Assembly: GCA_937973995.1 (NCBI GenBank)
Contig: CALJIQ010000215.1
Location: 1-56,246, forward strand
Direction of reading: 5' to 3'
Source of the DNA: an uncultured Saprospiraceae bacterium
GTDB lineage: Bacteria; Bacteroidota; Bacteroidia; Chitinophagales; Saprospiraceae
DNA length: 56,246 bases
Of this stretch, positions 25,287-41,900 are shown piece after piece. Numbering within the stretch: the stretch's first letter is position 1; each line of letters starts with the position of its first letter. Under the pieces are notes generated by a model. It was not told where the DNA came from and made no database searches. It was given only the letters and a program-made list of their open reading frames with translations. A program made the position numbers and the translations under genes.

Positions 25287-25493
25287 TGTTTTAAAATTTT
25301 GATGTCTATGATTGTTTAGAAATAGTGAAATTTCAACTTCTTGGGGCATAGTCTTTCTATGCCTAGTTGAATTCTAATCACTAAACAACCATAGATTCTT
25401 TCGAGTAGAATCTTTATGGCTGTGGGAACCGATTTCAACAGTTTAGGAACTTTTAAAATCTTCACAGCCTCTTACCAAAAAGAGCATCACTTT

Positions 25494-28400
25494 CTAGAAA
25501 GTTGCATTCAACGTTACACCATATCTCTTAGAGGTAGGTGCAGAACGGAAGTCAAAACCTCTACCGTTTCCTACTCCTAAACTCAATACCTCAGGATCAA
25601 AATTGATTCCTTCAGGGAAGTTAGGTGCATTATACCATAAGTTTTGACCGGAGAATGTTAAACCAATTCTTCCGAAAGGAGTTTTAGCTACTACATTATC
25701 AGGTAGTACATAAGCCAAAGAAACCTCTCTCAAACGAATAGCAGTCGCATCAAATACCCCTCCCTCATCTGCGAAGAAATAAGCTCTAAAGAAAGAGTCA
25801 CCAATATAAGTCTGAATATCATTAGGCGTACCATCTGCTTTTACACCAGGTAATACTAAAGGCACGTTACGATCTACATCAGTATCAACGGTATTACCCC
25901 TTGCCATTAATGCTTGAACGGAAGAAGAATAAATATCTCCACCATCTACATAATCCCACTGGAATCCGAAAGATAATCCTCTCCAAGAGAAGTTATTAAT
26001 CCAGTTAGCGGTAAAGTTTGGATTTGGATCACCAATAATACCTAGCTCACCAGAACCTTGATAATTACCCTGTGCAGTTACGATCAAGTTACCTTGTGCA
26101 TCCTTTAAGAAAGGCTCTCCTTGCATAATACCATAAGGCTCTCCAGGAATTGCCCAGTTACCTAATCCTCCAGTAAATCCAGCTGCACCTGCAGCACCTA
26201 ATACATCATTTTCTCCATTCGTTGCAATTTGAATTTGGTCAACTCCATCAGCAATCTTCAATACTTCTGAAACGTTCTTAGTATAGTTCAAAGTAATGTC
26301 CCAAGTAAAGTCTCTACTCTTAACAGGAGTAATATTCAAGCCTAATTCAACTCCTCTGTTCTGTAACTCTGCTGCATTAATAGTTGTATTGGTGAATCCA
26401 GTTGCTGGATCCAAGTTCAAATCAACAATCAAATCAGAAGACTGTCTGTCATAAACAGATAAATCAACGCCTAATCTATTATTCAAGAAACGAGCTTCCA
26501 CACCACCTTCTAACTCTACGTGTAACTCTCTTGTTAAATTAGGATTACCTAAACGATTAGATAAAGAGTTAACGTTTAATACACTTCCACCTCTAGTTAC
26601 GAATTGGTTGGTAGATGTACCTAGAATAGTTCTAGTCTGATATGGAGACGGATAACCTGCAGATGTACCATATCCTGCTCTAATTTTCAAGTAATTAATA
26701 ATATTACTATTCACTAAGCTAGGAATCGCTTCAGACAATACAAAAGATGCACTTGCAGAAGGATAGAATACAGAACGGTTATCTCTTTCTAAAGTAGAAG
26801 TCCAGTCATTTCTAGCCTGGAAGTTTACATATAAGTAATTCTTATAACCTAAAGTAGCGGTAGCATAAGCACCAAAAGTATTTTCCTTAGTGATACCAGA
26901 GAATGCTCTGTGGTCAATAAAGTTACCGTGATTGAATAAACCAAATACCAATTGGTTAGTACTCAATAAGAAATTCGCATCTCTAGATTCATTTCTTAGG
27001 TTTAATCCTATGATACCGTCTAAAGATAAATCTTCATTGATCTGATAGTTATATAGTAAGTTAACCAACTGATCGGTAATTCTATTCAATCGATTAGAAG
27101 AAGTCATTCTACCATCTGGTGTCTCTGTTCCTCCTCTATTTAACGTTCTGATTTGATTCTGAGAATACTGATCAATACCAATACGATAAAGTGCTGTTAA
27201 CCAAGGCGTTAATTCATAGCTCAATTCTGTAGTAGAAAAGAAACGCTGAATTCGCTCATCATCAGAAGAGTTATTTAAAATCCACAATGGATTCATAATA
27301 GGCGATCCTCTACGATAGTAGATATTAGAACCATCAATAGGACTTTGGTAAGGTAAGCCCAATAAGTCATTTGATCTTGGTGTAAATAGTAAGGCACCAT
27401 AGAACCCACCGTCACCAGTAGCATCACCACCAAATGCCTGTGCAGTTAAAGGTGTTTTACGCTCAGAATCAACATAGTTGAAAGAACCTTTAATTCTAAG
27501 TCCATTCTGTAAAGTAGTCTGTGCACCTAAACCAAAGTTATGCTTTCTAATTACATTACTTGGTCCTCCTCCTCTTTGCTCATCTAAGTTAGGCGTAAAA
27601 CCTTCATCATTTAAGTAAGAGTATGTTGCACTGATTGAAGAGTTAGCTCCTAACTGACTTTGAACAGAAATAGACGTGTTAGAAGTCAAGCCTTTTTCCC
27701 AAAAGTTTTCTACACTTTCATAAGGTTCATAAACATAATCTGCACCAATGAACTCTGGTACATCATCATTATACTGTGCTTGATCTAATGGGTGAGTAAT
27801 AAGAACTTGACCATTTCTTTCTCCTTTATAATCTGAACCATAAGAAGAAGGATTTAAATCATCAAAAGCAGCACCCCAGTTAGAGAAGAACCAACCGAAA
27901 CCTGCGTTAAAACCATTACCAAAAGTATTTTGGTAATTAGGAACATTCGCAATCTCTGTTTGAGAAAGAGATTGTGTAACAGAAACTTCTAATTTTTTGT
28001 TAGCGTTAGCTCCACCTTGACCGTTCTTTGTAGTAACTAAGATTACCCCGTTACGACCTGCTTCCCCATATAATACAGTTGCACTCAATCCTTTTAAGAT
28101 TGAAACTTCCGCAATACTGTTAGGGTCTAAGTCTAAGAAACGGCTAGAGGCAGTCGCACCACCTGAACCAAAACCTTGATCTGAGTTAGTATCCGTATTA
28201 AATGGAATACCATCAATAACAAATAAAGGTTGGTTGTTACCTGAAATAGAAGAGTACCCACGAATAATAACGTTGGTACCAGAACCAGCCATACCAGAAG
28301 TTTGAGTAATATCTACTCCTGTTGCTTTTCCTCTTAAAAGACGAGCAACATCCCCTTCAGGTCTTCCCTGAATCTTATCATTGGAAATGGTAGATACTCC

Positions 28401-28754
28401 GTACCCCAATGCTTTCTTTTCCTTCTTGATACCCAAACCCGTTACTACGACTTCGGTTAATTCAAGTCCTTCGGAAAGGATAACATCTAGTACATTGGAA
28501 GCACTTGTTGTTACGTCTTTACTGGCATAACCAGTGTAACTAAATTGCAGGGTTTGTTCCCCTGTCGGAACCTCTAAACTATATGTGCCATCAATATCAG
28601 TGACAGTACCAATAGTAGAACCCTCAACTAGTACACTTGCACCAATTAAGGGTTCTCCGGTATCGTCCGTTACTGTACCCGTTATAGTACGTTGAGCCAT
28701 AACTGAGCCACATAGGAATAGAAACATTCCAAAAACTAGTGACAGTTTTTTCAT
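25494..28754 (-). CDS. SusC/RagA family TonB-dependent outer-membrane transporter
   Basis: 1086 aa. It has a signal peptide, a carboxypeptidase-regulatory-like N-terminal domain (ITGTVTDDTGEPLIGASVLVEGS), a plug (VVVTGLGIKKEKKALGY) and a C-terminal aromatic residue (..LNATF). There is no STN signalling domain. Confidence 0.93.
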   Translation of the reverse strand: MKKLSLVFGMFLFLCGSVMAQRTITGTVTDDTGEPLIGASVLVEGSTIGTVTDIDGTYSLEVPTGEQTLQFSYTGYASKDVTTSASNVLDVILSEGLELTEVVVTGLGIKKEKKALGYGVSTISNDKIQGRPEGDVARLLRGKATGVDITQTSGMAGSGTNVIIRGYSSISGNNQPLFVIDGIPFNTDTNSDQGFGSGGATASSRFLDLDPNSIAEVSILKGLSATVLYGEAGRNGVILVTTKNGQGGANANKKLEVSVTQSLSQTEIANVPNYQNTFGNGFNAGFGWFFSNWGAAFDDLNPSSYGSDYKGERNGQVLITHPLDQAQYNDDVPEFIGADYVYEPYESVENFWEKGLTSNTSISVQSQLGANSSISATYSYLNDEGFTPNLDEQRGGGPSNVIRKHNFGLGAQTTLQNGLRIKGSFNYVDSERKTPLTAQAFGGDATGDGGFYGALLFTPRSNDLLGLPYQSPIDGSNIYYRRGSPIMNPLWILNNSSDDERIQRFFSTTELSYELTPWLTALYRIGIDQYSQNQIRTLNRGGTETPDGRMTSSNRLNRITDQLVNLLYNYQINEDLSLDGIIGLNLRNESRDANFLLSTNQLVFGLFNHGNFIDHRAFSGITKENTFGAYATATLGYKNYLYVNFQARNDWTSTLERDNRSVFYPSASASFVLSEAIPSLVNSNIINYLKIRAGYGTSAGYPSPYQTRTILGTSTNQFVTRGGSVLNVNSLSNRLGNPNLTRELHVELEGGVEARFLNNRLGVDLSVYDRQSSDLIVDLNLDPATGFTNTTINAAELQNRGVELGLNITPVKSRDFTWDITLNYTKNVSEVLKIADGVDQIQIATNGENDVLGAAGAAGFTGGLGNWAIPGEPYGIMQGEPFLKDAQGNLIVTAQGNYQGSGELGIIGDPNPNFTANWINNFSWRGLSFGFQWDYVDGGDIYSSSVQALMARGNTVDTDVDRNVPLVLPGVKADGTPNDIQTYIGDSFFRAYFFADEGGVFDATAIRLREVSLAYVLPDNVVAKTPFGRIGLTFSGQNLWYNAPNFPEGINFDPEVLSLGVGNGRGFDFRSAPTSKRYGVTLNATF

Positions 28755-29226
28755 ACGAATCCGATTTTATTTAATTAAATAAATTTGTCTAGCTTAGAAA
28801 ATTCTTATTGACTGTTTGGTTATAATGATTGATGGATTGAAAAAGTAGGTGGGGTTTTAATATTCAATCATCCTTGCATTTATTCATCCAGACACTAAGA
28901 AAGGCCAAAGCTAGTAAAGAAATCTATTTTTTTATAATAATAAATTAACTTTTTCTTAACCGTGTATTTTTAGACTAAACTGATTTTGGGTAGAAAATGC
29001 TGCTTTTGGGTATGAAATTTATTTTCCACAAAATATCTACTCATTAAAATAATAATATTTTATTTTATTTTTCATATATATCACCTTATTTTATTGTAGG
29101 AAACCCAATTTTTATAATATATTTTTAGGAAAATGTAAATTTCTACTTTTTTGCTTTTTACTGGCAAAATTTATTTTGAGTTATTGCTTTTAAAAAAAAG
29201 TTTAACATTTAAAAAGCGAATTTTCG

Positions 29227-29949
29227 CTATTTTTCTACGTTACACTGTTTCAAATATTGCGTTATGGATTGTTCCAAGCCCATATATAGCGCATCTGTAA
29301 TTAGCGCATGTCCTATAGACACCTCCTGTACGTAAGGTACATTTTTAAGAAAGTAAGCTAAATTCTTTAAATTCAAATCATGCCCAGCATTAATTCCTAA
29401 GCCTAAGGAGTGAGCTAATTTTGCACTGCGAATAAAAGGATCCACCGCTTTTTTTCTTGCTTTTGAAAATTGATGTGCATAAGGCCCCGTATAAAATTCT
29501 ATTCTATCTGCTCCCACTTCTTTAGCCCCTTCTATCATTTTTTCGACTGGATCAATAAAGATAGAAGTTCTTATTCCTGCTTCCTTTAACGGTCCTATTA
29601 CGTCAATAAGAAATTTCTTGTGCATTATCGTGTCCCAGCCCGCATCAGAAGTCAATGCGGTTGGAGCATCTGGTACTAAAGTGCATTGATCGGGTTTGCT
29701 TTGCTGAACTATTTTAAGAAACTTAGGAATAGGGTTTCCTTCAATATTTAGTTCCGTTTTCACTACGCTCTTAAGCGCAGATACATCCTCATAGCGAGCA
29801 TGCCTTTGATCTGGTCGAGGGTGAATAGTTATGCCTAGTGCTCCATAGGTTTCGCAATCCTTTGCTACTTGCACTAAATTTGGATAATTCGCACCTCTTG
29901 AGTTCCTAATCAGCGCTACTTTATTGATATTCACACTTAGTCGAGTCAT
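29227..29949 (-). CDS. pdxJ: Pyridoxine 5'-phosphate synthase
   Basis: 240 aa. LSVNINKVALIRNSRG...ITIHPRPDQRH...EFYTGPYA...NAGHDLN are conserved PdxJ blocks. Confidence 0.94.
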   Translation of the reverse strand: MTRLSVNINKVALIRNSRGANYPNLVQVAKDCETYGALGITIHPRPDQRHARYEDVSALKSVVKTELNIEGNPIPKFLKIVQQSKPDQCTLVPDAPTALTSDAGWDTIMHKKFLIDVIGPLKEAGIRTSIFIDPVEKMIEGAKEVGADRIEFYTGPYAHQFSKARKKAVDPFIRSAKLAHSLGLGINAGHDLNLKNLAYFLKNVPYVQEVSIGHALITDALYMGLEQSITQYLKQCNVEK

Positions 29950-30005
29950 TTATTTCTTTATTTGAAATGTACTCGCCTAATTTATTAGGCTGAGTAAGTT
30001 TTTAA

Positions 30006-30113
30006 TTTTTAATGATTGAATTTTGAATGGGACTCCTCCTAAATCTTAGTATTTTCGTCTTATTGCGTCCCGTTTCATTCAAAATTCAATCATTCAAAAT
30101 TCATCATTAAAAA
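30006..30113. repeat. Family A long element (MITE/REP-like), copy 4
   Basis: The TTTTGAATG-word arms flank the core CTTAGTATTTTCGTCTTATTGCGTCCCGTTTCATTCAAAATTC. That core closely matches the reverse complement of 51636-51680. Confidence 0.85.
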
Positions 30114-30875
30114 GACGTCCAACCATTTTCAAAAGGGGAAGCAAAAATACATTAAACCCAGAATTGCTGCTTTTTTGGCTAATAGTATCTTTTTAGAGCC
30201 CCTTTTAAAATTCATCTGAGCCTCAAAACAGTAAGAGTAGGTCTAAGTGGTTGGCATGGTTTTTCATCTAAGTCAAAAGGAAAAGAACAGAATATCTGAT
30301 AAAATCCTCCCTTCCAGTATCTTATATAGGTTCAAAACTCAAAAAAGTAAACTTTTTTCTGGTTCAAAGGAAAAAATGTCACTATATTCACCCCCAACTC
30401 TTGTAGTCTATTTGTGAATAGCAATTCCAGAATGAATTTTAAGCTTTTTCTTTTCTACTTTTCTCAAAAATAGTTTTCATTCCTATTGCAAATTCTAATT
30501 GACTAACAGGGTGGAGAAAAACGTAGCAAACATACTAAAGTGGACTTTACCAATGATTGGTTATTATCCAAGCAGCGGTTGATCTAATAATCAAATCAAG
30601 TTCCACAACGAGAAAACTAAAAACCCTTTATTATCGGTCTCCTTGAAATGTACTGCATACCCCTTTTAAGCCTATAATCAATATCTTTTCAACTGAAAAG
30701 ACGTACTAGACTGAGAAATCAGACAAATTAATTTTACATTTCAATTACTTCTGATAATTGTTTCTACAATTTCCATAACACCCAGCTTACGACATCCTTC
30801 TGAGAAATTTTGAATCGCCCCATCCTTCTGGGGTGTATGTGCCTTTTATTTTTATAATTGGGAAAATAAATACTA

Positions 30876-31769
30876 ATGAGACCCACTTTTTGGATATTAT
30901 TAATACTACTAATTCTATGGTTATTTGGAATGAGTTATTGCCATAACTCCCTTTGTAATTGCGGTCCGATAGGCGCGGTTGTGCCTGCTGTAGTTCCTGG
31001 GGATAATGACCAGAACGGGAATTCCCTTAAATATCTTTCGATTTCGGATGAAAATGGAGCATTTGATTCCTCTTTGAATGACAATTTATTATTCGCAACT
31101 TCAGATTGCATGTATGCTTCTCCTTTATCTGATTCTTTAAATACCTTTTTTCAAAACCTAGCTGATTATTTAGTACAGAATGAAAATAGGATATTGGTGT
31201 TATCAGGTTTGTATCAAGAATCGGAAAATAACCCTTGCCCTTCTGAGAACTTAGGCTTAGCAAGAGCAGAGAGTGTACAACAACTATTAGTGGATCAAGG
31301 CGCCCCTACTAGCCAAATACGGTTATCCTCTTCTATGGAAAATATTCTTGACATGGATGATGATAAGATTATGGGCGGTATTTCCTATTCCTTCTTAAAT
31401 GGAGACTTAGGAGAAGTAGAAAGTCGTTTGCGATCGCAAAATATTACGCTCCTCTTTGGTACTAATCAAGAGGATATATTCTTTGATGAAGAACAAACTA
31501 AATACTTTGAGGATTTAAGATTCTTCTTGTCTAGGAATGATAATGCTAAAGCATTAGTTATTGGACACACCGATGATGAAGGTTCTGCCGCCAGCAATAG
31601 GAGATTAAGTCGAGATAGAGCCAATACAATAAAAGATTATATGATTGATAAAGGAATTAATGAATATCAAATAATCGCTAAAGGAATGGGGCCTGATGAA
31701 CCAGTTGCTACTAATGATACGGAAGATGGAAAAGCCCAAAATAGACGGGTGGAGATTAGTATAGAGTGA
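30876..31769 (+). CDS. OmpA-family peptidoglycan-binding protein with an N-terminal membrane anchor
   Basis: 297 aa with an N-terminal hydrophobic helix (FWILLILLILWLFGM). The C-terminal OmpA_C domain is canonical (LVIGHTDDEGSAASNRRLSRDRANTIKDYM...GMGPDEPVATNDTEDGKAQNRRVEISI). A degenerate first OmpA-like half precedes it. Confidence 0.88.
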   Translation: MRPTFWILLILLILWLFGMSYCHNSLCNCGPIGAVVPAVVPGDNDQNGNSLKYLSISDENGAFDSSLNDNLLFATSDCMYASPLSDSLNTFFQNLADYLVQNENRILVLSGLYQESENNPCPSENLGLARAESVQQLLVDQGAPTSQIRLSSSMENILDMDDDKIMGGISYSFLNGDLGEVESRLRSQNITLLFGTNQEDIFFDEEQTKYFEDLRFFLSRNDNAKALVIGHTDDEGSAASNRRLSRDRANTIKDYMIDKGINEYQIIAKGMGPDEPVATNDTEDGKAQNRRVEISIE

Positions 31770-31855
31770 TTTTTATGCTTTATCGAATTACTATTGAGCA
31801 AACAAAAGTTAAATAAATTAGCCTACAACTCTAAATAGGCAAAAAATATACAATT

Positions 31856-34624
31856 ATGAGTTTCTGCGCATTTTGGCCATTCTTGACTGGAATCGTTTCT
31901 GCTATCCTTGGGTATTTAATGGCCCAATCCTATTTCAGCAATAAATTAAGGCTATCCGAGGAATCTACTTTAAAAATTAGAAAAGAGAGAAATAGCTTTG
32001 AGAAGAAGTACCAAGAAGTAGATAGTACTTATAAAAGTTATAAGTTGAGAGCGGATAGTGACGTTAAGACATGGAAAAACAAACATGATGATCTCTCCCT
32101 TCAAATGCTATCTCTTGAAAATACTCTAAAAGAGAAAGAGGCACTTTGGTTAACCTCTTCAACGGCAACAGAGAAAGAGATTGTTGAAGTAGAGAAAGTG
32201 GTAGAGGTACCTACAGAACGAGAAATCCAAAGAATAGTAGAGGTACCAACAGAAATAATAAAAGAGGTGGAAAAAATAGTGGAAGTACCGGTAGAAGTAA
32301 TAAAAGAAGTAGAAAAAATAGTGGAAGTGCCTGTGGAGGTAATTAGAGAGGTAGAAAAAATAGTAGAAGTAGAAAGAAAGGTAGAAGTACCCGTAGAAGT
32401 TATCAGAGAGGTAGAAGTAATACAGGAAGTACCTGTGGAAGTCATCAAAGAAGTAATCCGAGAAGTAGAAAAGATAGTGGAGGTCATCAAAGAAGTAGAA
32501 GTGTCTGTGGAGGTAGAAAAAATAGTAGAGGTGGAAAAAATAGTGGAAGTACCTGTGGAAGTAATGAAAGCAGTGGTAAAGGAAATAGAATCTGTGAGAG
32601 AGATAAAAGTGCCCGTAGAAGTAATTAGAGAAGTGGAGAAAATAGTGGAAGTCATCAAAGAAGTAGAAGTAGAAAAGAAAGTGGAAGTACCAGTGGAAAT
32701 AATTCGAGAAATTGAAAAGATTGTAGAAGTACCCGTCGAAGTGATAAAAGAAATTGAAAAGATAGTAGAAGTACCTGTCCAAATAATAAAAGAAGTAGAA
32801 GTTCCCATAGAAGTAGAGAGAGTAGTAGAAATTCCTGTAGAAATCATTAAGGAAGTAATTAAAGAAATCGAAACAATAGAGGAAGTCAAGGTGCCCGTAG
32901 AAGTAATAAGAGAAGTAGAAAAGATTGTAGAGATAATAAAAGAAGTGGAGGTAGAAAAAATTGTGGAAGTGCCGGTGGAAATCATTCGGGAAATTGAAAA
33001 GATTATCGAAGTGCCGGTGGAAGTCATTCAGGAAGTAGAGAGAATAGTGGAAGTACCTGTGGAGATTATTCAGGAAGTTGAAAAAATAGTGGAAGTGCCA
33101 GTAGAAGTTATTCGTGAAGTGGAAGTTGAAAAAATAGTGGAAGTACCAGTAGAAGTTATTCGTGAAGTGGAAATTGAAAAAATAGTGGAAGTGCCAGTAG
33201 AAGTTATTCGTGAAGTGGAAATTGAAAGACTAATAGAAGTACCGGTGGAAGTTATACATGAGATTGAGAAAATAGTGGAAGTGCCAGTAGAAGTTATTCG
33301 TGAAGTGGAAATTGAAAGACTAATAGAAGTACCAGTAGAAGTTATACACGAGATAGAAGTAGAGAAAATTATAGAAGTGCCAGTAGAAAAATTAGTAGAA
33401 ATAGAGAAACTAGTGGAAGTGCCTGTCGAAGTAATTAAGGAAGTGGAAGTAGAGCGAAGAGTTGAGGTACCTGTGGAAGTAATTAGAGAAGTAGAAAAAA
33501 GAATAGAAGTGCCCGTAGAGGTTATACGAGAAGTAGAAGTGGAAAAAATAGTAGAAGTGCCTGTGGAAGTAATTAGAGAAATTGAGAAGATTGTAGAAGT
33601 ACCTTTTGAGGTAGTTAAAGAAATTGAAAAGATTGTAGAGATACCAGTTGAAATTATTAAAGAAATTGAGATTGAAAAAAGAGTAGAAGTACCTGTAATA
33701 AAAGAAGTAGAGGTAGAAAAAATAGTAGAAGTGCCAGTCGAAATCATTCACGAGATAGAAGTAATAAAAGAGGTAGAAGTACCTGTGGAAATTACTAGAG
33801 AGGTGGAAGTGGAGAAAATAGTGGAAGTACCTTTTGAAGTAATCAAAGAAGTTGAAAGGGAAGTACAAAAGGTAATAGAGGTACCCACAGAAGTAATCAA
33901 AGAAGTACAAGTAATCGTTGAAAAAGAAGTAGTGGTTGAAAAGATAGTGGAAGTTCCGGTAGAAGTAATCAAAGAAGTTGAAAAGGTGGTAGAAGTACCC
34001 AAAGAAGTCATCAAGATAGTAGAGATCATCAAAGAAATTCCAGTAGAAACTATTAAAAATGTGCCTTTTGAGGTAATCAAAGAAGTTGAAAAGGTAATAG
34101 AGGTACCTGTGGAAGTAATTAAAAAGGTAGAAGTAATAGTTGAGAAAGAAGTACCCGTTGAAATTATCAAAGAAGTGCCAGTGGAGGTAATCAAAATAGT
34201 GGAAAAAATAGTAGAAGTACCCGTGGAAGTAATAAAGGAAATAGAGGTATATAGAGATGTACGACACTCGGTAACTAGAGGCAGAAAAGAATCGCCTGTT
34301 GAAAAACAAACTACTAAAACTACCCGTGGAACGTCTGCTAAAAAAACGACTAAAATAGTTGGAAATGAAGAAAGAGATAATTTTATTGTGATAGAAGGAA
34401 TTGGACCTAAAATTGAGCAACTATTATTTGATAACGGTATCAATACCTTTGAGCAATTGGCCGCCTTAACTCCATCTGCTATCCGTTCTATTTTGGAAAC
34501 AGGTGGTCCTCGTTATAGAATTCATGATCCGACAACATGGCCTAAACAAGCAGATTTAGCAAGTCAAGATCTATGGGATGAGTTACGAGAGTGGCAGGAT
34601 AAATTAGATGGAGGTAAACTGTAA
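31856..34624 (+). CDS. Membrane-anchored acidic repeat protein: N-terminal TM, coiled coil, ~690 aa of VEVPVEVI(K/R)EVEKI-type (PEVK-like) repeats, basic linker, C-terminal GIGPK helix-hairpin-helix-like domain
   Basis: 922-aa ORF with TM segment FWPFLTGIVSAILGYLMAQ followed by K/R-rich sequence. Differences between repeat copies are synonymous, which shows the repeats are translated. The C-terminal 80 aa are VIEGIGPKIEQLLFDNGINTFEQLAAL...TWPKQADLASQDLWDELREWQDKLDGGK. Confidence 0.85.
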   Translation: MSFCAFWPFLTGIVSAILGYLMAQSYFSNKLRLSEESTLKIRKERNSFEKKYQEVDSTYKSYKLRADSDVKTWKNKHDDLSLQMLSLENTLKEKEALWLTSSTATEKEIVEVEKVVEVPTEREIQRIVEVPTEIIKEVEKIVEVPVEVIKEVEKIVEVPVEVIREVEKIVEVERKVEVPVEVIREVEVIQEVPVEVIKEVIREVEKIVEVIKEVEVSVEVEKIVEVEKIVEVPVEVMKAVVKEIESVREIKVPVEVIREVEKIVEVIKEVEVEKKVEVPVEIIREIEKIVEVPVEVIKEIEKIVEVPVQIIKEVEVPIEVERVVEIPVEIIKEVIKEIETIEEVKVPVEVIREVEKIVEIIKEVEVEKIVEVPVEIIREIEKIIEVPVEVIQEVERIVEVPVEIIQEVEKIVEVPVEVIREVEVEKIVEVPVEVIREVEIEKIVEVPVEVIREVEIERLIEVPVEVIHEIEKIVEVPVEVIREVEIERLIEVPVEVIHEIEVEKIIEVPVEKLVEIEKLVEVPVEVIKEVEVERRVEVPVEVIREVEKRIEVPVEVIREVEVEKIVEVPVEVIREIEKIVEVPFEVVKEIEKIVEIPVEIIKEIEIEKRVEVPVIKEVEVEKIVEVPVEIIHEIEVIKEVEVPVEITREVEVEKIVEVPFEVIKEVEREVQKVIEVPTEVIKEVQVIVEKEVVVEKIVEVPVEVIKEVEKVVEVPKEVIKIVEIIKEIPVETIKNVPFEVIKEVEKVIEVPVEVIKKVEVIVEKEVPVEIIKEVPVEVIKIVEKIVEVPVEVIKEIEVYRDVRHSVTRGRKESPVEKQTTKTTRGTSAKKTTKIVGNEERDNFIVIEGIGPKIEQLLFDNGINTFEQLAALTPSAIRSILETGGPRYRIHDPTTWPKQADLASQDLWDELREWQDKLDGGKL
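32171..34249 (+). repeat. About 2.1 kb of in-frame degenerate tandem repeats (39-48 nt units, with a 90-nt higher-order unit)
   Basis: Three 48-nt units (33080-33127, 33128-33175, 33176-33223) differ at 1-2 positions. Two 90-nt units (33179-33268, 33269-33358) differ at 5 positions, all synonymous third positions. The coding strand is almost all G/A/T, with C mostly in Pro codons. Confidence 0.95.
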
Positions 34625-34676
34625 TAACAATTAAAAAAATATAAGTACCGCGACAAAAATACTTTAGGAAATAAAA

Positions 34677-34755
34677 TTTGATGGTCTGATGGCTAGATTG
34701 TTTGATGGTCAACTTTACGGTAGCCATCAAATAATTTAGCTATCAAACCGTCAAA
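34677..34755. repeat. Family D palindrome (TGATGG words), copy 2
   Basis: TTTGATGGTCTGATGGCTAGATTGTTTGATGGTC-loop-GGTAGCCATCAAATAATTTAGCTATCAAACCGTCAAA, pairing at about 29 of 34 positions. Confidence 0.82.
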
Positions 34756-34802
34756 AGAATAAGCTAAACTATTTCTGTCCTCTTACTTACTCAAGTAAAT
34801 CT

Positions 34803-35780
34803 ATGTTTACATTATCAAAAGAAAACCGTATCAACGCTAGTATTCCGGATCAGGATAGTTTATCAGATGCTATTTATATCAATAGAGATGGAAAAATCCA
34901 AAGCATCAAAGTTTCTGTAGCTATTCAACATCCATATATGGGAGATATTTCCATTAAATTACTGAGTCCTTTGGGAACAGAAGTGTTGCTACAAAATAGA
35001 GAAGGTGGCGCAAATGATAATATAAACAAAGTATTCGAAGGAGAAGCATTAGAAGTATTGCAGGGTCAATCAACAAAAGGCTCTTGGATACTCACGGTAC
35101 AAGACCACGCTGCTCAAGACGATGGCATCTTGGACGCTTGGGGATTAGACTTGACCTGCAATGAATTCGAATCTTATAAATCAGAAATATTTATTGCTGA
35201 TTCTACTGAGGAAGAACAATTAGTTAGTACGCAAACCTGTAGGTTTAATGGAAGAGTCACGAAAGCAGAAGCTGAAATAGAATTAGAACATCCTAGTATC
35301 GGTGATTTAATTATTTCCATCCTTGCACCTAGCGGCAAAGAAATAATTTTAAGAGATCGAGAAGAGACAGATAAAAAATTTCTATTCCGAACATGGAGTA
35401 ATGTGTCTCTCCAAGAATTTGTTGGCGAGTCCACTTTAGGAACATGGGCTTTAAAAATCAAAAGCTTTCATTCTGATCCATCCGGCAGTTTAAAACATTG
35501 GAAAATTCGTTTTCATTATGAAAGTGAAGAGGATCTAAAAGTAATTGAAGGAATAGGACCAAAAGTAGAAAATATTCTTAAAGCTAATCATATCTATTCC
35601 TATGTTGATTTAGCTACTACTCCTGTATCTGCCTTATTATCTCTGTTAGAAGAAAATCCAGAAATTGGTCAATTTCACGAACCCCAATCTTGGCCGCAGC
35701 AATCTCTTCTTGCTGCTCAGGGACGGTGGGTAGATTTAGAAGCGCTTAAGGCTGATTTACATGGAGGTAAGATAATTTAA
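34803..35780 (+). CDS. Tandem proprotein-convertase P-domain protein lacking a signal peptide and a protease domain, with a C-terminal GIGPK helix-hairpin-helix-like domain
   Basis: 325 aa with two P-domain-like units. Unit 1: VSVAIQHPYMGDISIKLLSPLGTEVLLQNREGGANDN...GSWILTVQDHAAQDDGILDAWGLDL. Unit 2: AEIELEHPSIGDLIISILAPSGKEIILRDRE...GTWALKIKSF..SGSLKHWKIRF. The C-terminus VIEGIGPKVENILKAN...SWPQQSLLAAQGRWVDLEALKADLHGGK is homologous to the end of the preceding gene. Confidence 0.78.
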   Translation: MFTLSKENRINASIPDQDSLSDAIYINRDGKIQSIKVSVAIQHPYMGDISIKLLSPLGTEVLLQNREGGANDNINKVFEGEALEVLQGQSTKGSWILTVQDHAAQDDGILDAWGLDLTCNEFESYKSEIFIADSTEEEQLVSTQTCRFNGRVTKAEAEIELEHPSIGDLIISILAPSGKEIILRDREETDKKFLFRTWSNVSLQEFVGESTLGTWALKIKSFHSDPSGSLKHWKIRFHYESEEDLKVIEGIGPKVENILKANHIYSYVDLATTPVSALLSLLEENPEIGQFHEPQSWPQQSLLAAQGRWVDLEALKADLHGGKII

Positions 35781-35953
35781 CTTGCTTCTTTTCTTGTGCT
35801 AATACAAAAGCAAATTTCCACAGAACGGTTGCTAGATGCTGAATACTATTGTACCAAACTACCAGCGTCCAGTAACAAGAGCATCCAGTATCTTTTCTTG
35901 AATTTATTATTCTCTAACCAATTACGTTTCTAAGTTGCAATTAATATTCTTCC

Positions 35954-38900
35954 TTATCGATGTATTTCGAGGAAGCCTTGTAATACTCGATTAGTATCAT
36001 CATTTAATTCTAGGCAATAGAAGTAAGCCCCATCTGGTAATTCCAAATTTCCTTTCCAAGTTCCTGCCCAATCATTATCATAACCTATTGATTGAAATAC
36101 TCGCTCCCCCCAACGATTATAAATTTGTAAACGGCTTTCAGGAAATTCCTCTATCCCTGAAATGAAGAATACATCATTCGCCCCATCTCTATTAGGGGAA
36201 ACGGCTGTAAAGACTACAATATCTATGCACTCGATCCAAATTTCAACCATTGCCGTATCACAACCCACATCGTTACAAATAGAGTAGGTTAATTGATCAA
36301 ACCTAGCACAGAATTCGTCGCTGATATAAGTTAGTGAGCCGTCTAAATTCAGATTAGCGTCTCCATATAAAGGTGATTCAATAATGGAAATTCCATCTAT
36401 GAAGGGCACTCCAAAAGGCGTATCATTACCTAGTATATCTATGACCAAGGGTGTGCCAAGAGTAGTTGTATCTCGATCATCAATTGCAGTTGGTAATTCT
36501 TTAAATTCTACGACGCTTACATTAAAGAAAGCGGTATCACAATTTCCTAAATTATCGCAAATTACGATACAAGCTGAATCCTCTCCCAATTCTAAGCCTT
36601 TATACTCAACACAAAAACTCAAGGGATTTATTGTAAAATCAACTACATTACCTGACGATTCCGAACAAATATTTTCAAAAGATACAATCTCTCCTGGAAG
36701 AATACTGGTATCAAAACAATACTCTGCTTCTTCATTTATAAACAAAGTATCTTGAATTCTATCTGGTGCATTATTTAATACATGTATGACAAATTGAATA
36801 GTATCACAACTTCCATTTTCATTACAAAATGCAAAGGAGGTAGAATCAACGCCTAACATTTCAGCGGTATATTGAATACAACCACTTGTCGGATCAATAA
36901 CAAAATCTACCAAACTTGGTAAATCATTTTCCTGCTTGCTAATTTCATTGATAGAAGTAAATCTTTCCTCCAAGTCTAATATATTATTGGCAATACAAAC
37001 TTCCGCTGCTTCGCCTATCATAATAGTATCTTCAAATTCTTCCAATAATAATTGAATGGCAATTATATTGGTATCACAAACTCCAAACTCATCACAAAGA
37101 ATTATACAAGCAGTATCTACTCCCGGATTTTGTCCAGTTATTATCACACAGGTATCGCCAAATGCTTTCACTGAAGCTGTATTGTTTTGTAAACACTCAA
37201 TGGTGATACTAATATCGTCTCCTAATAACTCATTTGTAGAAAAACAAATCGTATCCATCTCTCCATTACCAATTCGTATTTCAGAGGAATCAATCGTACT
37301 ACAGGTAGTTAGAATAAAAATAGAATCCATGCAAAAACTCTGAGTATCTTGTACTACTAGACTATGAACCCCAATAGGAACATTGATTTGAACCCCTTGT
37401 TCCTGAGCGATGATTTCAAAGCTAAGCGTAGTATTAAATAAATCATTATTCCCAACAATTTGCATGGGCTGATAAGTCGAAGTTCCTTTTTGACCTACGA
37501 TAGATAACCCATCTTCTGACACTTGCCAATTACTCCTCTCATCTAAAGAATCCATTAAAGCTGCTAACTCAATAATCGTAGCAAAATTACCCGTAAATAT
37601 ATTTTCGTCTATTTGCCAAGAAGTTAGCTCAAATGGTCCAATTTCTCCTTGACCTGAAAGATTGGAATAAGAATACACGATCAGTGTATCCAATCCACAA
37701 AGTGTAATGTTTGCAGTGGGAATAGGAGTCCCGTCTAAATTGAATAAAAGGAGATTATTAGGGTCCAATTGATAGTTCAAACAAAGCGGTAATACCTCCG
37801 TACAATTATTGGTTTGAACCATGATGGTATCTTTTCTTATATTAATCTCACAAGCTGCACAAGCTCCATTTATATTTGGATCGTCCAAGGTAAAATCTAA
37901 GGTAAGCATGCAACCAGTATTGATATCCGTCACGCTCACCATTTGGGTACCAAAAGGTAAATTGGCATTCGTATCCTCCACTCCCCAACTATAGTTATAA
38001 GATCCACTTCCATCGGTAACAGCAACAGTAACCGATCCGTCATTCCCTTCACAGGTAGGATGCTGATTTATTATAGCTGTAGCGTTAAAATTATTTTCCG
38101 CTACTAATTCTACTTGTACAATAGATTGACAAATATCAGTAGCCGTCGTATCGGTTACGGTTACCTCATAGATACCTGCTGCTAAGTCATTTCGTTCTAT
38201 ACCAATAACTCCATCTTCCCAACTATATCGGTACGTATCAGGAGAAAATCGAATCGTTCCATTAGCAGAATTACTACAGGTTGGTGGGCTGCTTATAGCA
38301 ACAGCAGTTGGCTCTTCATTAATCAAAGAAACCAATATACTCGTCACACAACTTGCATCTCTTTTATCTGTAATTAGAATTTGATAATCGCCTCCGGGAA
38401 GATTGGTACGAATATTTTCAGTGGCTCCAAAGATGCCAATGTTGGGTACCCATTCTATATTATAATTGCTTGGTTCCTCCGCTAATTCTAAAGTAACACT
38501 TCCATTGGTTTCTCCACAAGAAGGATTTTGAATGGCATCACTTATGACAGGACTTGTCTCATTATCTTCTCTAGGAATATCAACAACAACTTCCTCCAAG
38601 CAGGTTGTATCATTAGTGGAGGTGACCGTTATATTATAGCTTCCTGACCCTAAATTTTCTCTAATATTGGGCATTGTACCCGACTCCCCTACTCCATCTG
38701 GCCAATTAAAATTATAATCGGAAACCGCTCCTACTACGGTAAGCGTTACCGAGCCATTGATTGCAGAACAGCTACTAGCAGTCGTTTCTATATTAGTGAC
38801 AAATTGATTAGTCAATTCTGGTTCGATAATAAAATCTGTCACCTGCGTACAAGCTTCATTTGCCAAAGAGGTAATCGTAACACTATAGTTCCCAGCAGCA

Positions 38901-41900
38901 AGACTGTCTATGATATTGATAGAAGGGCCTACATTTTGAATAGGTGGATCAAAGGTATAGCCAAAATTTAAAGGATCATCGACCAATAGTATCTCTACCG
39001 TTCCATTAGTGATATTACAAGAAGAACGAGTCGTATTAATATTGGTGATTAATTCATCCTCCCCATTCAAAGGTACATTTATGGATAGGGATTGAATACA
39101 GCTTTCCCTATTCCCCAATTTGACTTCAACCGTATAATCACCTGGTGGAATATTTTCAAATAGATTAGGGGTCGCTCCTATTTCGGCTACATTAGGTTCG
39201 ATGGTATATACATAGTCATTAATCGCATTCGGAACCACTATTTCAACTGTACCATTCCCTAAACAACTAGCAGGAGTGATGGCTGCACTAGCACCTAAGT
39301 TATTAGAACTTTCTTCTGGCACCTCTATCTCTATTGTTTGAATACATTGTTCGTTACCTGATAGTTGTATGTCCACTGAATAAATTCCAGCGGGCAAGTT
39401 TTCTTGGATATTAGGCGTAGCCCCAAGCGTTCCTGCATTAGGCGAATAACTAAATGTAAAATTATCGTCAGTACCTACGATTTCAAGCGTAACCCTTCCA
39501 TCACGGTTTCCACAGGTAGCTCCTTGAATTTGAGAAGTAACAATAGTTAACAGAGCATCCTCTTCTACCACAGCCAAAATTGATTCCCTACAAAGGGAAT
39601 CCTCTTTTTGAGTAATGGTTATTTCATATTCACCGGCTGATACATTTTCAAAAATATTCGGACTATTTTCATTTCGACCAATAGCGGAGTTTATCGAAAA
39701 AGTATAGTCTTCTATGTCCTGCTCTAAAAGAATTTCAATGCTACCCGTCTCATTCCCACAAGCTGAATTAATCGTTACGATGTCCTCAATCGTTGGTAGT
39801 ATGCAACACTTAGGTAATTCGACAGACAAATTAGTTGGGCAGTTTTGCTCATCAAATATAGTTAAGTCATAAATTCCACTTTCCATATCCGTCCTATTGG
39901 CTTCATTATCTGTCCCTGCTAAGTCCTGCCAGTCATATCTAAAATTCTGACTAGAATCTGCCACCTCTATCCGAATGAATTGTGTGGAATCACAATTAAG
40001 CGATTTCACCACATTTACTTGTAGAGGATCATTCGTACCAATGGTAAACGGAGCAGAACTAGTGATACACCCCGTCGCATCACTGATATAAACAAAGTAA
40101 TCTCCATCAGGCAGATTTCCATTTTCATATTCAGTAGCCCCATCGCTTATTACGGTATCCGCTGGAAATAAAAATTCGTTGCTGTATTGCACTTCAAATG
40201 CTACTTGTCCATCTGTATTACCCAAACAAGATATATTTGAAATAGAAGTAACCGTTACCGTTTCTAAAGTTACTCTACTTTCTAACATAAAGGAATAGCT
40301 TAGTTCACAACCAGAAATCCTATCTGTAATATCCACTTGATAAATCCCTGGCGCTAACCCATCTTGCCGATTGCTACCACTAGGAAAGTCAAAATTATAT
40401 TCTCCACTTCCTCCAAGCACTTCCAATTGGACCGCCCCATTGGTCTCATTACAACTTGGATACTCCTCTACTATTAGATTTGCTTGGAGATTATTTTCTC
40501 CTTCTATTTCAATTAATTGAATATCTGGACAACCAGGATTTACAGGGTCCGTAAAGGTGACATAATAAATACCTGCCCGCAAATCAGTACGAGAACTAGC
40601 TACTACTCCATCACTCCATCTATATGTGAAATTGTCTGGTTGAAAGTTCGCTACTCCACTATTTTCTATACAGGTGGAAGGTGCAACTTCGACTGAGACA
40701 GATGGTCCATCATTATTACCAATAATCAAAAATTGTTCAATAAAACAAGTGGAGTCACTTTTTAGACTGACTTTTACTTTGTAGCCACCAGCAAACAACT
40801 CGGTGCGTATATTCTCAGAAGTCCCCGCAACCCCTCCATCAGGAGACCATTCAAAATTGTAGTCTTCTGCATTCCCTACAACGGAAATGGTTGCACTTCC
40901 TAGACTTTGGTTGCATCCACTCTCTTCCGTAATGATACTTTGTATAATTGGTTGAGGGCATTCCACTTCACAGTTTTGTTCTAATACTAAAATGGATAAA
41001 CTATCTCTACAACCATCTGATTTAATAATTTGTATTTCGTGTTGTCCAATGGTTAAAGGAATAGCAAATCCCATGGGAATAATCTTTGCATCATATCCCA
41101 AAACTGAGGTTGAATTTTCAGTTGGAATACGAATATTGATCGGACTATAGACCCCACCAATATGTCCTCCTTCTATAACATTCGCCTCTTCATTTAATAT
41201 CCAATTTCCTGTCGGATTCCATATATTCATAGAATCCACCAAATCAGAGATAGTCCCAACAGTACCCTGAAAGGTTTCTCCATCTACTACCCAACTATCT
41301 ACAAAAATATCACCATCGGTATTGAGGATATTTCCATAAGAGTAAATACATAATTGTTCAATATCACAGCTTAACAAGGTTGGTAAATCAAGGGAAATTC
41401 CATTGTCAATTACTTGGATTTGAGTAAGATCATTATCTAGTATATTATCCAAACAAAAATTGATAGACGTCTTACAATTTGGTACAAAGAGACTATCCAT
41501 TAAAAAATGGTCAATTCCTTCGCAAGCCTCGGAGCAAGCTAAGAAAAAACGAGTGGAATCAGTAGAGATGTAATTGCTAAAGCAGGTTTCCTCACTTACC
41601 TCACAGAAAAAATTTTCTGAACTGATAGTACTGATGTCTATTCCGATATCCATTCCACAATCCACCTCTATTCCCATTATTTGAAAACTAATGGTCACCT
41701 CCTCTCCATTCGCTAAACCACTAGGTAAGGAATATCGAAGTTGGAGGGTACTATCACTTCTATGCAAGGAAGGTTCGTCAATGTCCCATTCCACAAAGCT
41801 CAAGGCTAATGTTGAATTGGGTACGTAATCTATCGTATGGGGTAAGGTTATATTAATGCTATCATTATCAGAAACGTTTTCACCAATATTGGCGAAAGAT

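Follow-up and report, generated by a model that had tools for sequence, protein, structure and literature searches.

What kind of system is encoded by three adjacent genes of which the first specifies an OmpA-like protein, the second a membrane protein with a long acidic repeat region, and the third a pair of proprotein-convertase P-domains? The question is raised by a metagenome-derived stretch of 56,246 nucleotides (nt) from an uncultured Saprospiraceae bacterium (GenBank assembly GCA_937973995.1, contig CALJIQ010000215.1), the whole of which is referred to here as the window. The genes, named g1, g2 and g3, were regarded in an earlier note as an envelope-associated three-gene module in which g2 and g3 end in the same C-terminal domain. 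That note had described them as co-directional, and all three open reading frames (ORFs) were confirmed from the ORF list at the following positions.

30876–31769, + strand: g1, 297 amino acids (aa)
31856–34624, + strand: g2, 922 aa
34803–35780, + strand: g3, 325 aa

Comparison of gene neighborhoods indicates that the conserved unit is a two-gene operon composed of an OmpA-like anchor (g1) and a protein with a transmembrane (TM) helix, a spacer, and a C-terminal helix-hairpin-helix (HhH) domain (g2). The g3 gene and the expansion of the g2 spacer into 697 aa of repeats are, from the same comparison, judged to be additions specific to one Saprospiraceae clade. The HhH domain shared by g2 and g3 is referred to as the tag.

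The expectation that the three families would adjoin one another in other genomes was borne out, the full trio being present in six distinct Saprospiraceae lineages (the window; L004, equivalent to L016; L006/L007; L008/L009; L012; and L014). At these loci, g3 shares 49–63% identity with that of the window, and the genes on either side differ throughout. Loci L011 and L013 carry g2 and g3 together on contigs that end upstream. Since the order of the trio is kept in six lineages while the flanks differ, its retention goes beyond the usual chance adjacency. This bears on the alternative that g3 is a mere neighbor, in which case the unit would consist of g1 and g2, and the P-domain protein would be another client of the tag that lies beside them by descent in one clade. 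Full-length g3 orthologues are indeed few (seven Saprospiraceae/Bacteroidota species representatives and approximately 39 metagenome clusters, with the nearest relatives among species-level genomes all being uncultured Saprospiraceae or Bacteroidota), the g1-g2 pair is common without g3, and a gap of 178 nt separates g3 from g2. The tag of g3 is 40% identical to that of g2 as compared to as much as 50% for copies from other phyla. There is also one locus, L005 (9387–10978), in which a g3 of 44% identity occurs without g1, behind a 155-aa protein that combines a TM helix and a coiled coil with a basic tail; this protein lacks both the repeats and the HhH tag, and no OmpA gene is found nearby. 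A truncation by sequencing error is possible at L005 since it is a long-read contig of 3x coverage. With order and orientation maintained in six lineages, even as g3 identity falls to 49% and none of the flanks are alike, the mere-neighbor explanation is considered unlikely, though it keeps some weight.

The linkage of g1 and g2 is both broader and stricter. From the tag side, approximately 30 of approximately 45 loci with a TM-HhH gene have a g1-like OmpA gene 3–106 nt upstream on the same strand. The carriers include Flavobacterium, Tenacibaculum, Polaribacter, Maribacter, Olleya, Siphonobacter, Chitinophagales, Bacteroidales, many Saprospiraceae, and three Acidimicrobiia, giving the pair a range across Flavobacteriia, Cytophagia, Chitinophagia, Bacteroidia, Saprospiria, and Acidimicrobiia. 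From the g1 side, metagenomes were scanned with the N-terminal half only, by means of the motif F[PE]NLG[LF]AR and a Flavobacteriia-only alignment (A4). An HhH domain on the same strand began 245–438 nt past the stop codon of the g1-like gene in all 58 evaluable loci, the g1-like proteins of which are 35–86% identical. At two loci (L090 and L091), an OmpA gene is accompanied by a repeat-bearing g2-like protein with no g3. The two-gene unit follows from these observations since the trio is narrow, while the linkage of g1 and g2 holds from the tag side and, independently, from the g1 side. Of the proposed three-gene module, the trio itself is therefore real, but its core is a widespread pair that many Bacteroidota, and also Acidimicrobiia, have without g3 or repeats. 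The literature searched yielded no functional study of either the operon or the domain, in keeping with the view that the system is undescribed. Database labels for its members are 'hypothetical protein', 'OmpA family protein', 'predicted flap endonuclease-1-like 5' DNA nuclease', and 'LSU ribosomal protein L21p', the last being a misnomer that arises from the tag.

From its sequence, g1 is predicted to be a membrane-anchored, periplasmic, OmpA-like peptidoglycan-binding protein. It may be considered in terms of three parts.

30888–30962, + strand: TM anchor (approximately aa 5–21) and juxtamembrane Cys motif CHNSLCNC (aa 22–29); Kyte-Doolittle hydropathy (KD) 2.17
31125–31331, + strand: degenerate OmpA-like domain 1 (aa 84–152); PF00691, E = 5.6e-5 when the N-terminal half was scanned alone
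31455–31745, + strand: canonical OmpA/MotB-type peptidoglycan-binding domain (aa 194–290); PF00691 and motifs

The N-terminal helix is the single hydrophobic segment of g1, and there is no Asp or Glu in residues 1–24. No canonical lipobox is present, and an uncleaved helix seems to serve as the anchor. The canonical OmpA domain at the C-terminus, already recognized in the earlier note, scores 85.1 bits against PF00691 (cut-off 27.2) and presents the motifs GHTD..G....N..LS..RA and NRRVE, which are seen in the translation as GHTDDEGSAASNRRLSRDRA and NRRVEISIE. The Asp and Arg of GHTD..G...LS..RA are presumably the residues of the diaminopimelate-binding site, as in the family at large. The degenerate domain had been overlooked. 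It contains the family motif NLGLARA without the GHTD and NRRVE motifs, and the pattern G..E..NLG.ARA forms invariant or nearly invariant columns in the g1-family alignments A3 and A4. The g1 protein falls below every NCBIfam equivalog cut-off.

Directly after the membrane helix, proteins of the g1 family carry a Cys cluster (CCxC, CCxxC, CPxxxxCP, or CxxC) that is kept across Bacteroidota; examples are the window (30939–30962) and loci L027, L033, L041, L053, L060, L075, L080, L081, L083, and L085. A Cys is also present in many g2-like partners, at the outer end of the helix, as in IPCWLIP. An intermolecular disulfide or a metal site on the periplasmic face is possible.

The g2 protein is predicted to be a bitopic membrane protein with its N-terminus outside and its C-terminus in the cytoplasm, and is composed of five regions.

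31868–31930, + strand: TM segment (approximately aa 5–25); KD 1.74, the sole window above 1.6, with a best value of KD 1.21 elsewhere
31937–32170, + strand: helical/coiled-coil segment (approximately aa 28–105); free of Pro and Gly, conserved in orthologues (tblastn with the g2 N-terminus)
32171–34261, + strand: repeat spacer, alveolin/articulin-like (aa 106–802); 43 proline-delimited units
34262–34366, + strand: basic S/T/K/R linker (aa 803–837); net charge of approximately +7
34367–34621, + strand: C-terminal HhH tag (aa 838–922), COG3743-type; IEGIGPK ... HDP.TWP.QA.LA...W.EL..WQ..LDGG

The single N-terminal hydrophobic segment agrees with the earlier description of one TM helix followed by K/R-rich sequence. 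Since the sequence after the helix is rich in K and R, the positive-inside rule would put most of the protein in the cytoplasm. The N-termini of g2 orthologues are conserved as MS.C.L.PxLTGL. The segment at aa 28–105 is probably helical or a coiled coil, an assignment made by inspection rather than with a coiled-coil tool. At the other end, the basic linker and the GIGPK-containing domain were as anticipated, the latter being 85 aa in length where approximately 80 had been estimated.

An OmpA/MotB-type anchor beside a membrane protein could also be taken for an ion-driven stator or a Zorya-like defence system, with g1 as the MotB/ZorB-type anchor, g2 as a long-tailed MotA/ZorA-type partner, and g3 as the effector. 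ZorA has a long cytoplasmic tail that offers a parallel to g2, and the OmpA domain of g1 does match the ZorB models of PADLOC (E = 3.9e-17). The match is, however, confined to the generic peptidoglycan-binding domain, the TM helix of g1 is without Asp or Glu, and g2 has one hydrophobic segment in place of three or four. Neither g2 nor g3 has a PADLOC match, and no ZorC/D-like, nuclease, or ATPase gene occurs in the module or at the other loci inspected. A stator is considered extremely improbable. The defence-system reading was ruled out, as PADLOC gave only the generic MotB/ZorB match on the OmpA domain.

The spacer of g2 had been described as approximately 690 aa of Glu/Val/Ile/Lys/Pro repeats and measures 697 aa. 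Six residues make up nearly all of it (V 30%, E 28%, I 17%, K 10%, P 6%, R 4%), and its net charge is −100. The units are mostly 14 or 16 aa in length with the consensus VPVEVI[KR]EVEKIVE, and the underlying DNA has tandem periods of 42, 48, and 90 nt. Differences between units are concentrated at the third codon position (1132, as compared to 525 at the first and 314 at the second), 780 of the 1389 differing codons are synonymous, and g2 orthologues (425–991 aa) retain the frame and the architecture; for these reasons, the repeat region is judged to be real coding sequence. Five long antisense ORFs of 207–336 aa, rich in S/T/I/F or F/Y/H/L/N, are found in the repeats (32101–34443, − strand). 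They are not regarded as genes since they are by-products of a purine-rich repeat (GC skew +0.5).

While the repeats were originally likened to the PEVK region of titin, this comparison was dropped in favor of alveolins and articulins. The alveolin signature EKIVEVP occurs in 16 exact and 27 relaxed copies, VPV occurs 32 times, and the Pfam family IMCp (PF12314) is the sole repeat family matched. The IMCp match was obtained with aa 1–182 of g2 at 17.2 bits, which is below the cut-off of 21.1, and the full repeat region gave no match owing to bias filters. Precomputed IMCp matches are present in dozens of bacterial g2 homologues and are 'faint' where graded. Hydrophobic and polar residues alternate in the repeats with a value of 0.70 as compared to 0.50 ± 0.02 in shuffles, which is the pattern of an amphipathic strand.

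With these properties, g2 might be part of a bacterial membrane skeleton. The repeats themselves would then be functional and form a beta-rich lattice under the membrane like that of alveolins and articulins, pinned through the TM helix and g1, that stiffens or shapes large filamentous cells; the HhH domain and g3 would be accessories. Besides the motif counts, the IMCp match, and an alternation expected of amphipathic beta strands, a V/E/I/K/P composition with almost no A/G/S and the presence of acid-base dyads fit the criteria for 'epiplastins' (PMC6212826), and eukaryotic cortical proteins (P0195 and P0288) reach identities of at most 51% over the repeats. In orthologous operons, however, the same position is held by Ala/Thr/Ser-rich linkers or coiled coils, the length varies from 425 to 991 aa within the clade, and a similar V/E/P-rich stretch is a mere linker in fusions of the tag to ribosomal protein L27. 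A likeness of low complexity with an IMCp score below the cut-off is not proof of homology, and, at a net charge of −100, self-assembly would be disfavored unless counter-ions or a basic partner were present. A skeletal lattice is considered improbable. The only earlier bacterial mention of such repeats that was found concerns 'articulin'-annotated Caulobacter proteins (PMC6212826).

Long, near-identical runs of EKIVEVPV(D/E)RIVE were also observed in eukaryotic cortical proteins, with at most 51% identity over 67% of g2. They are fungal proteins with an Mcp5-type PH domain (P0195, P0284, and P0295) and proteins of other eukaryotes (P0288, P0301, and P0303). Either convergence or the transfer of a repeat cassette could account for the resemblance.

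The variability of the spacer is seen best when the whole family is compared, in which the TM-spacer-HhH proteins range from 170 to 1170 aa in total. In Flavobacteriia, the spacer is a short coiled coil with an Ala/Thr/Ser-rich linker and the whole protein spans only 170–215 aa. Some Saprospiraceae have very long coiled coils instead (L019, 1170 aa; P0069, 922 aa with three tags). Other lineages have V/E/I/K/P repeats, and inside the clade that carries g3 the g2 protein ranges from 425 to 991 aa. The linker that joins L27 to the tag in Saprospiraceae is rich in V/E/A/P/I and similar to the g2 spacer. These comparisons would be explained better by an interchangeable spacer of adjustable reach than by a domain dedicated to a particular assembly. 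Of the roles suggested in the earlier note, among them an elastic spacer and a DNA-mimic polyanion, a spacer or tether is favored over a specific polyanion function because the type of spacer is interchangeable across the family.

What, then, might the tag do at the end of such a spacer? The C-terminal domains of g2 and g3 had been estimated to be approximately 35–40% identical, and the measured value is 34 of 85 residues (40%, E = 1e-18). The IEGIGPK hairpin is invariant (G11, I12, and P14 in alignment A2). Against the Pfam family HHH_5 (PF14520, cut-off 27), the g2 tag scores 24.9–26.5 bits and the g3 tag 13.7 bits. An exhaustive HMMER (phmmer) search with the tag returned 6,357 cluster representatives (clustered at 50% identity), of which 3,568 have E ≤ 1e-10. 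Many relatives carry precomputed PF14520 or PF14229 matches, and the domain is often found in tandem arrays of 2–16 copies, which makes the tag multivalent. In several database sources, the relatives are named COG3743, 'predicted 5' DNA nuclease, H3TH'. By NCBIfam, the tag corresponds to an 'unknown domain' at the C-terminus of NuoE, L21, and S2 from Alphaproteobacteria (PRK12373, PRK12278, and PRK12311).

Fusion partners of the tag were surveyed in 80 genome loci. Fusions to ribosomal proteins involve L27 in Saprospiraceae (L037, L039, L051, L057, L061, L070, L078, and L079), L19 in a gammaproteobacterium (L089), S1 (L029 and L032), and S6 in a bacterium of the candidate phyla radiation (L048); an L17-tag fusion was among the matches listed. 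Three copies of the tag are fused to the RNA polymerase β' subunit (RpoC) in Planctomycetes (L064 and L069), and fusions to DivIVA in Cytophagales (L020 and L036) and to a CBM48 glycogen-binding module (L088) were also observed. In Saprospiraceae, an NrfD-type (PF03916) polytopic subunit of 576–643 aa bears a C-terminal tag (L023, L034, L040, L043, L062, L063, L068, and L086); seven of these eight loci, the exception being L068, have an OmpA-domain gene approximately 3.8–4.3 kb past the stop codon (approximately 6 kb from the start). The tag occurs on many small single-TM proteins as well. At the loci surveyed, none of the fusions to L27, L19, other ribosomal proteins, RpoC, DivIVA, or NrfD has an adjacent OmpA gene.

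Since the tag is fused to ribosomal proteins, RpoC, DivIVA, and NuoE, it is taken to be a cytoplasmic domain. Its distribution points to a promiscuous tag that is common to the machinery of translation, transcription, respiration, and division. The earlier note had named exactly such an outcome, a tag on many unrelated proteins, as one that would speak against its proposal. Because the tag is promiscuous and the g3 copy is no closer to that of g2 than to others, the sharing of the domain is weak evidence for a private partnership of g2 and g3. The claim that a shared domain implies a common partner is thus modified: sharing alone says little, but conserved synteny does support it.

The predicted location of the tag also bears on a different proposal, in which the C-terminus of g2 is periplasmic and binds DNA beside the wall-bound g1, as an external receptor similar to ComEA. 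ComEA is a membrane-anchored HhH protein, and the IEGIGPK hairpin is canonical. The positive-inside rule, however, places the C-terminus in the cytoplasm for g2 and for relatives from several phyla, the same domain is found on cytoplasmic ribosomal proteins, RpoC, DivIVA, and NuoE, g3 is tagged but has no signal peptide, and the tag is acidic. An external receptor is a very remote prospect and was ruled out on the basis of topology and the cytoplasmic fusion partners.

The AlphaFold2 model of the tag (predicted local distance difference test score, pLDDT = 94) has five helices with the hairpin placed between helices. Comparison of the model to the folds of the PDB gave no match at E ≤ 0.001; the best neighbors, which are non-significant (E ≥ 0.27), are the NusA C-terminus, the RadA/Rad51 N-terminus, the thumbs of Y-family polymerases, and SAM domains. 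Searches of PDB sequences returned weak matches only (8yy9_O, E = 0.018; 9wqv_a, E = 0.061). The net charge of the tag is −7 in both g2 and g3 with a mean of −4 over 93 copies.

The third gene, g3, is predicted from its sequence to encode a cytoplasmic double P-domain protein with an HhH tag.

34899–35150, + strand: P-domain 1 (Pfam aa 33–116; beta-sandwich of the model aa 2–121); PF01483, AlphaFold2 model, and fold match
35220–35525, + strand: P-domain 2 (approximately aa 140–241); second PF01483 stretch, with model strands at 140–241
35526–35777, + strand: C-terminal HhH tag (aa 242–325); 40% identical to the g2 tag and conserved in 21 aligned orthologues

The assignment of two P-domains with no signal peptide was upheld. 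P_proprotein (PF01483, cut-off 21 bits) matches two stretches with a score of 123.1 bits, and the maximum KD is 1.29. No S8 (subtilisin-like) domain was found in the Pfam scan of g3 and there is no hydrophobic N-terminus. The AlphaFold2 model of g3 (pLDDT = 83) was matched by Foldseek to the P-domains of furin and kexin with a probability of 1.0 and a root-mean-square deviation of approximately 3 Å. The strictly conserved N-terminus, MFTL.KEN.IN..IPD, forms the start of the first strand in the model. A PDB sequence search with g3 yielded nothing useful besides kexin.

The surroundings of the trio are as follows. Upstream of g1 lies the divergent gene pdxJ (29227–29949, − strand), and the region between them contains no ORF of at least 60 aa, in agreement with its description as 926 nt of non-coding DNA.

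29950–30875, no strand assigned: intergenic region pdxJ-g1, 926 nt, presumed to hold the promoter of the module

Within this gap is an inverted repeat of 26 nt (30004–30029 and 30076–30101; 96% complementary, with a 46-nt loop) that overlaps a 14-nt direct repeat (30075–30103) and is located approximately 55 nt upstream of where pdxJ starts. It could serve as an operator or form a regulatory hairpin. A scan of 29000–36500 against Rfam gave only chance-level matches of the miRNA type, the area of the inverted repeat included. In a scan of 29900–36000 for σ70-like promoters and terminators, the counts equaled those of shuffled sequence. No + strand copy of TAnnTTTG, the −7 motif of Bacteroidota, lies ahead of g1, g2, or g3, and the window as a whole shows no enrichment of it. 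The intergenic gaps within the trio are 86 nt (g1-g2) and 178 nt (g2-g3).

Downstream, the convergent giant gene that had been reported was confirmed (35954–45961, − strand, 3335 aa). It has precomputed matches to SprB (faint), Big_9 (weak), and CHU_C and probably encodes a type-B cargo of the type IX secretion system or a gliding-type adhesin. As a part of the module it was rejected, because a giant CHU_C gene, although again downstream in L008, is not found at that position in L004, L006, L090, or L091. Upstream of pdxJ is a pair consisting of a SusD-like protein (596 aa) and a SusC-like TonB-dependent receptor (1086 aa) (23559–28754, − strand), which is an ordinary context in Bacteroidota.

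Considering the conserved pair, its interchangeable spacer, and the promiscuous tag together, g1-g2, with or without g3, may constitute a tether, anchored in the wall and spanning the membrane, on which a docking tag is displayed; the Saprospiraceae version would be an expanded form. About an even chance is given to this proposal. In such a tether, g1 would be held by one N-terminal helix in the inner membrane with its N-terminus inside and its bulk in the periplasm, where it would bind peptidoglycan. The g2 protein, with its N-terminus outside and almost nothing in the periplasm, would lie beside g1 in the inner membrane and project its coiled coil, spacer, and HhH domain into the cytoplasm. 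The two could make contact through their single helices or their juxtamembrane Cys motifs, and together would constitute a wall-fixed tether that keeps the HhH domain at a fixed distance beneath the membrane. As a general docking tag, the HhH domain would bring g2, g3, and other tagged proteins, such as L27 in this family, to the same place. In the one clade, the spacer would have been inflated to 43 acidic, alveolin-like repeats, and g3, a soluble double beta-sandwich, would have been recruited, arriving at the tether site through its own tag.

As to the partner of the tag, pairing of one HhH domain with another, or binding to a common protein, is given the most weight, although somewhat less than an even share. 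A common polymer or nucleic acid, most plausibly the DNA of the nucleoid, is a slightly weaker candidate, and the remainder falls to something else.

There is precedent for the general layout in protein-O of the Dinoroseobacter shibae RC-LH1 complex, in which a membrane anchor and a long flexible loop are followed by a C-terminal domain that was not resolved in the map and the function of which is called obscure by the authors of the structure (PMC12079452). This protein supports the tether by combining a TM anchor, a flexible loop, and the same domain in a membrane complex. Several points nevertheless weigh against the proposal. The contact between g1 and g2 is putative, and a chimeric OmpA-HhH query found no single-chain fusion among its best 120 matches, a search that was not exhaustive. 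The acidity of the tags argues against simple DNA binding, but IEGIGPK is a canonical HhH motif of the DNA type and argues against a purely protein-binding role, and the tag has no significant fold match in the PDB (best E = 0.27). The gaps of 86 and 178 nt are without recognizable promoters or terminators, and the genes are only candidates for co-transcription. Locus L005 has g3 without an OmpA gene and behind a protein that lacks repeats and tag, and a P-domain in the cytoplasm would be unusual.

A wider version of the tether, regarded as improbable, would make the COG3743-type HhH domain a general tag for co-localization, either by homotypic pairing or by riding on the nucleoid, with g1-g2 as its wall-anchored receptor. 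In Bacteroidota and other phyla, ribosomes tagged on L27, L19, S1, or S6, RNA polymerase, respiratory complexes, and accessory proteins such as g3 would be gathered at fixed sites of the envelope, and the Saprospiraceae tether would also form a submembrane layer of the alveolin type, a prokaryotic counterpart of the epiplast of protists.

If the tether is correct, much of the Bacteroidota and at least some Acidimicrobiia carry a pair of proteins that links the wall, the inner membrane, and a cytoplasmic docking domain. The ligand of the tag would explain the long-noticed 'unknown domain fusion' on alphaproteobacterial NuoE, L21, and S2 as well as on RC-LH1 protein-O, and could point to a general mechanism by which large machines are positioned in bacteria. 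The Saprospiraceae g2 proteins would be bacterial membrane-anchored proteins with the exact motif of protist membrane skeletons, the second bacterial case after Caulobacter. The two-gene operon occurs in cultured species (Flavobacterium psychroterrae, WP_213296409; Maribacter algarum, WP_138657175/WP_138657174; Olleya marilimosa; and Siphonobacter sp. BAB-5405), which makes the system testable.

Each part of the system may be compared to a known one. The C-terminal domain of g1 makes it a clear relative of Pal, YiaD, YfiB, and MotB-type anchors, with which it shares GHTD..G, LS..RA, and NRRVE. Unlike these, g1 has a juxtamembrane Cys cluster, an extra degenerate OmpA-like domain, and no canonical lipobox, and it is obligately paired with a TM-HhH gene. 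The g2 repeats resemble those of alveolins, articulins, and epiplastins in their EKIVEVP and VPV modules, V/I/E/K/P composition, acid-base dyads, alternation of hydrophobic and charged residues, and predicted submembrane location. In contrast to alveolins and articulins, g2 is predicted to be an integral membrane protein with an HhH end, its repeats are replaceable in orthologous operons, and its IMCp score is below the cut-off. The resemblance may be one of convergent low complexity. Both P-domains of g3 are clear members of the furin/kexin family (PF01483) by sequence and fold. They differ in being in tandem and fused to a cytoplasmic HhH tag, with neither a protease domain nor a signal peptide, and a stand-alone cytoplasmic P-domain protein is unusual.

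The tag has its closest parallels in proteins of other function. Protein-O (PDB: 8yy9, chain O) belongs to the same domain family and has the same order of N-terminal anchor, loop, and C-terminal tag as the g2-like proteins; it differs by its helix-turn-helix membrane hairpin, its place inside a photosynthetic complex, and the lack of an OmpA partner. The extensions of NuoE, L21, and S2 are the same COG3743-type domain with different N-terminal partners. Among (HhH)2 modules, those of NusA AR1/AR2 and XPF-ERCC1 are acidic and serve in protein binding or dimerization, while those of UvrC, ComEA, and RuvA bind DNA. The tag has the five-helix HhH-type fold and canonical G-I-G hairpin of such modules and is acidic like the NusA AR domains. 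It departs from them in that its second hairpin is degenerate and its two C-terminal Trp-containing helices are family-specific, and searches of the PDB gave no significant sequence or structure match of the tag to any solved HhH domain.

For the overall design, the nearest analogues are the polar hubs HubP of Vibrio, FimV of Pseudomonas, and PodJ of Caulobacter, which join a periplasmic peptidoglycan-binding domain through one TM helix to acidic repeats and a conserved C-terminal domain on which client proteins are gathered. The g1-g2 pair would follow the same plan, with a single TM helix and a long, very acidic, repeat-rich part on the predicted cytoplasmic side. The sequences, however, are unrelated. 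Wall binding is of the OmpA type instead of LysM and is located on a separate chain, the C-terminal domain is HhH instead of FimV/TPR-like, and the repeats are of an unrelated type. No LysM or FimV domain was identified in the Pfam scan of g1, g2, and g3. Within g2, the features in common with HubP and FimV are limited to the TM helix and the acidic repeats, and wall binding resides on g1; the relationship to these hubs is therefore one of analogy and not of membership. Thus, while all of its component domains are known and its design has analogues, the g1-g2 pair itself is uncharacterized, strictly linked, and widespread.

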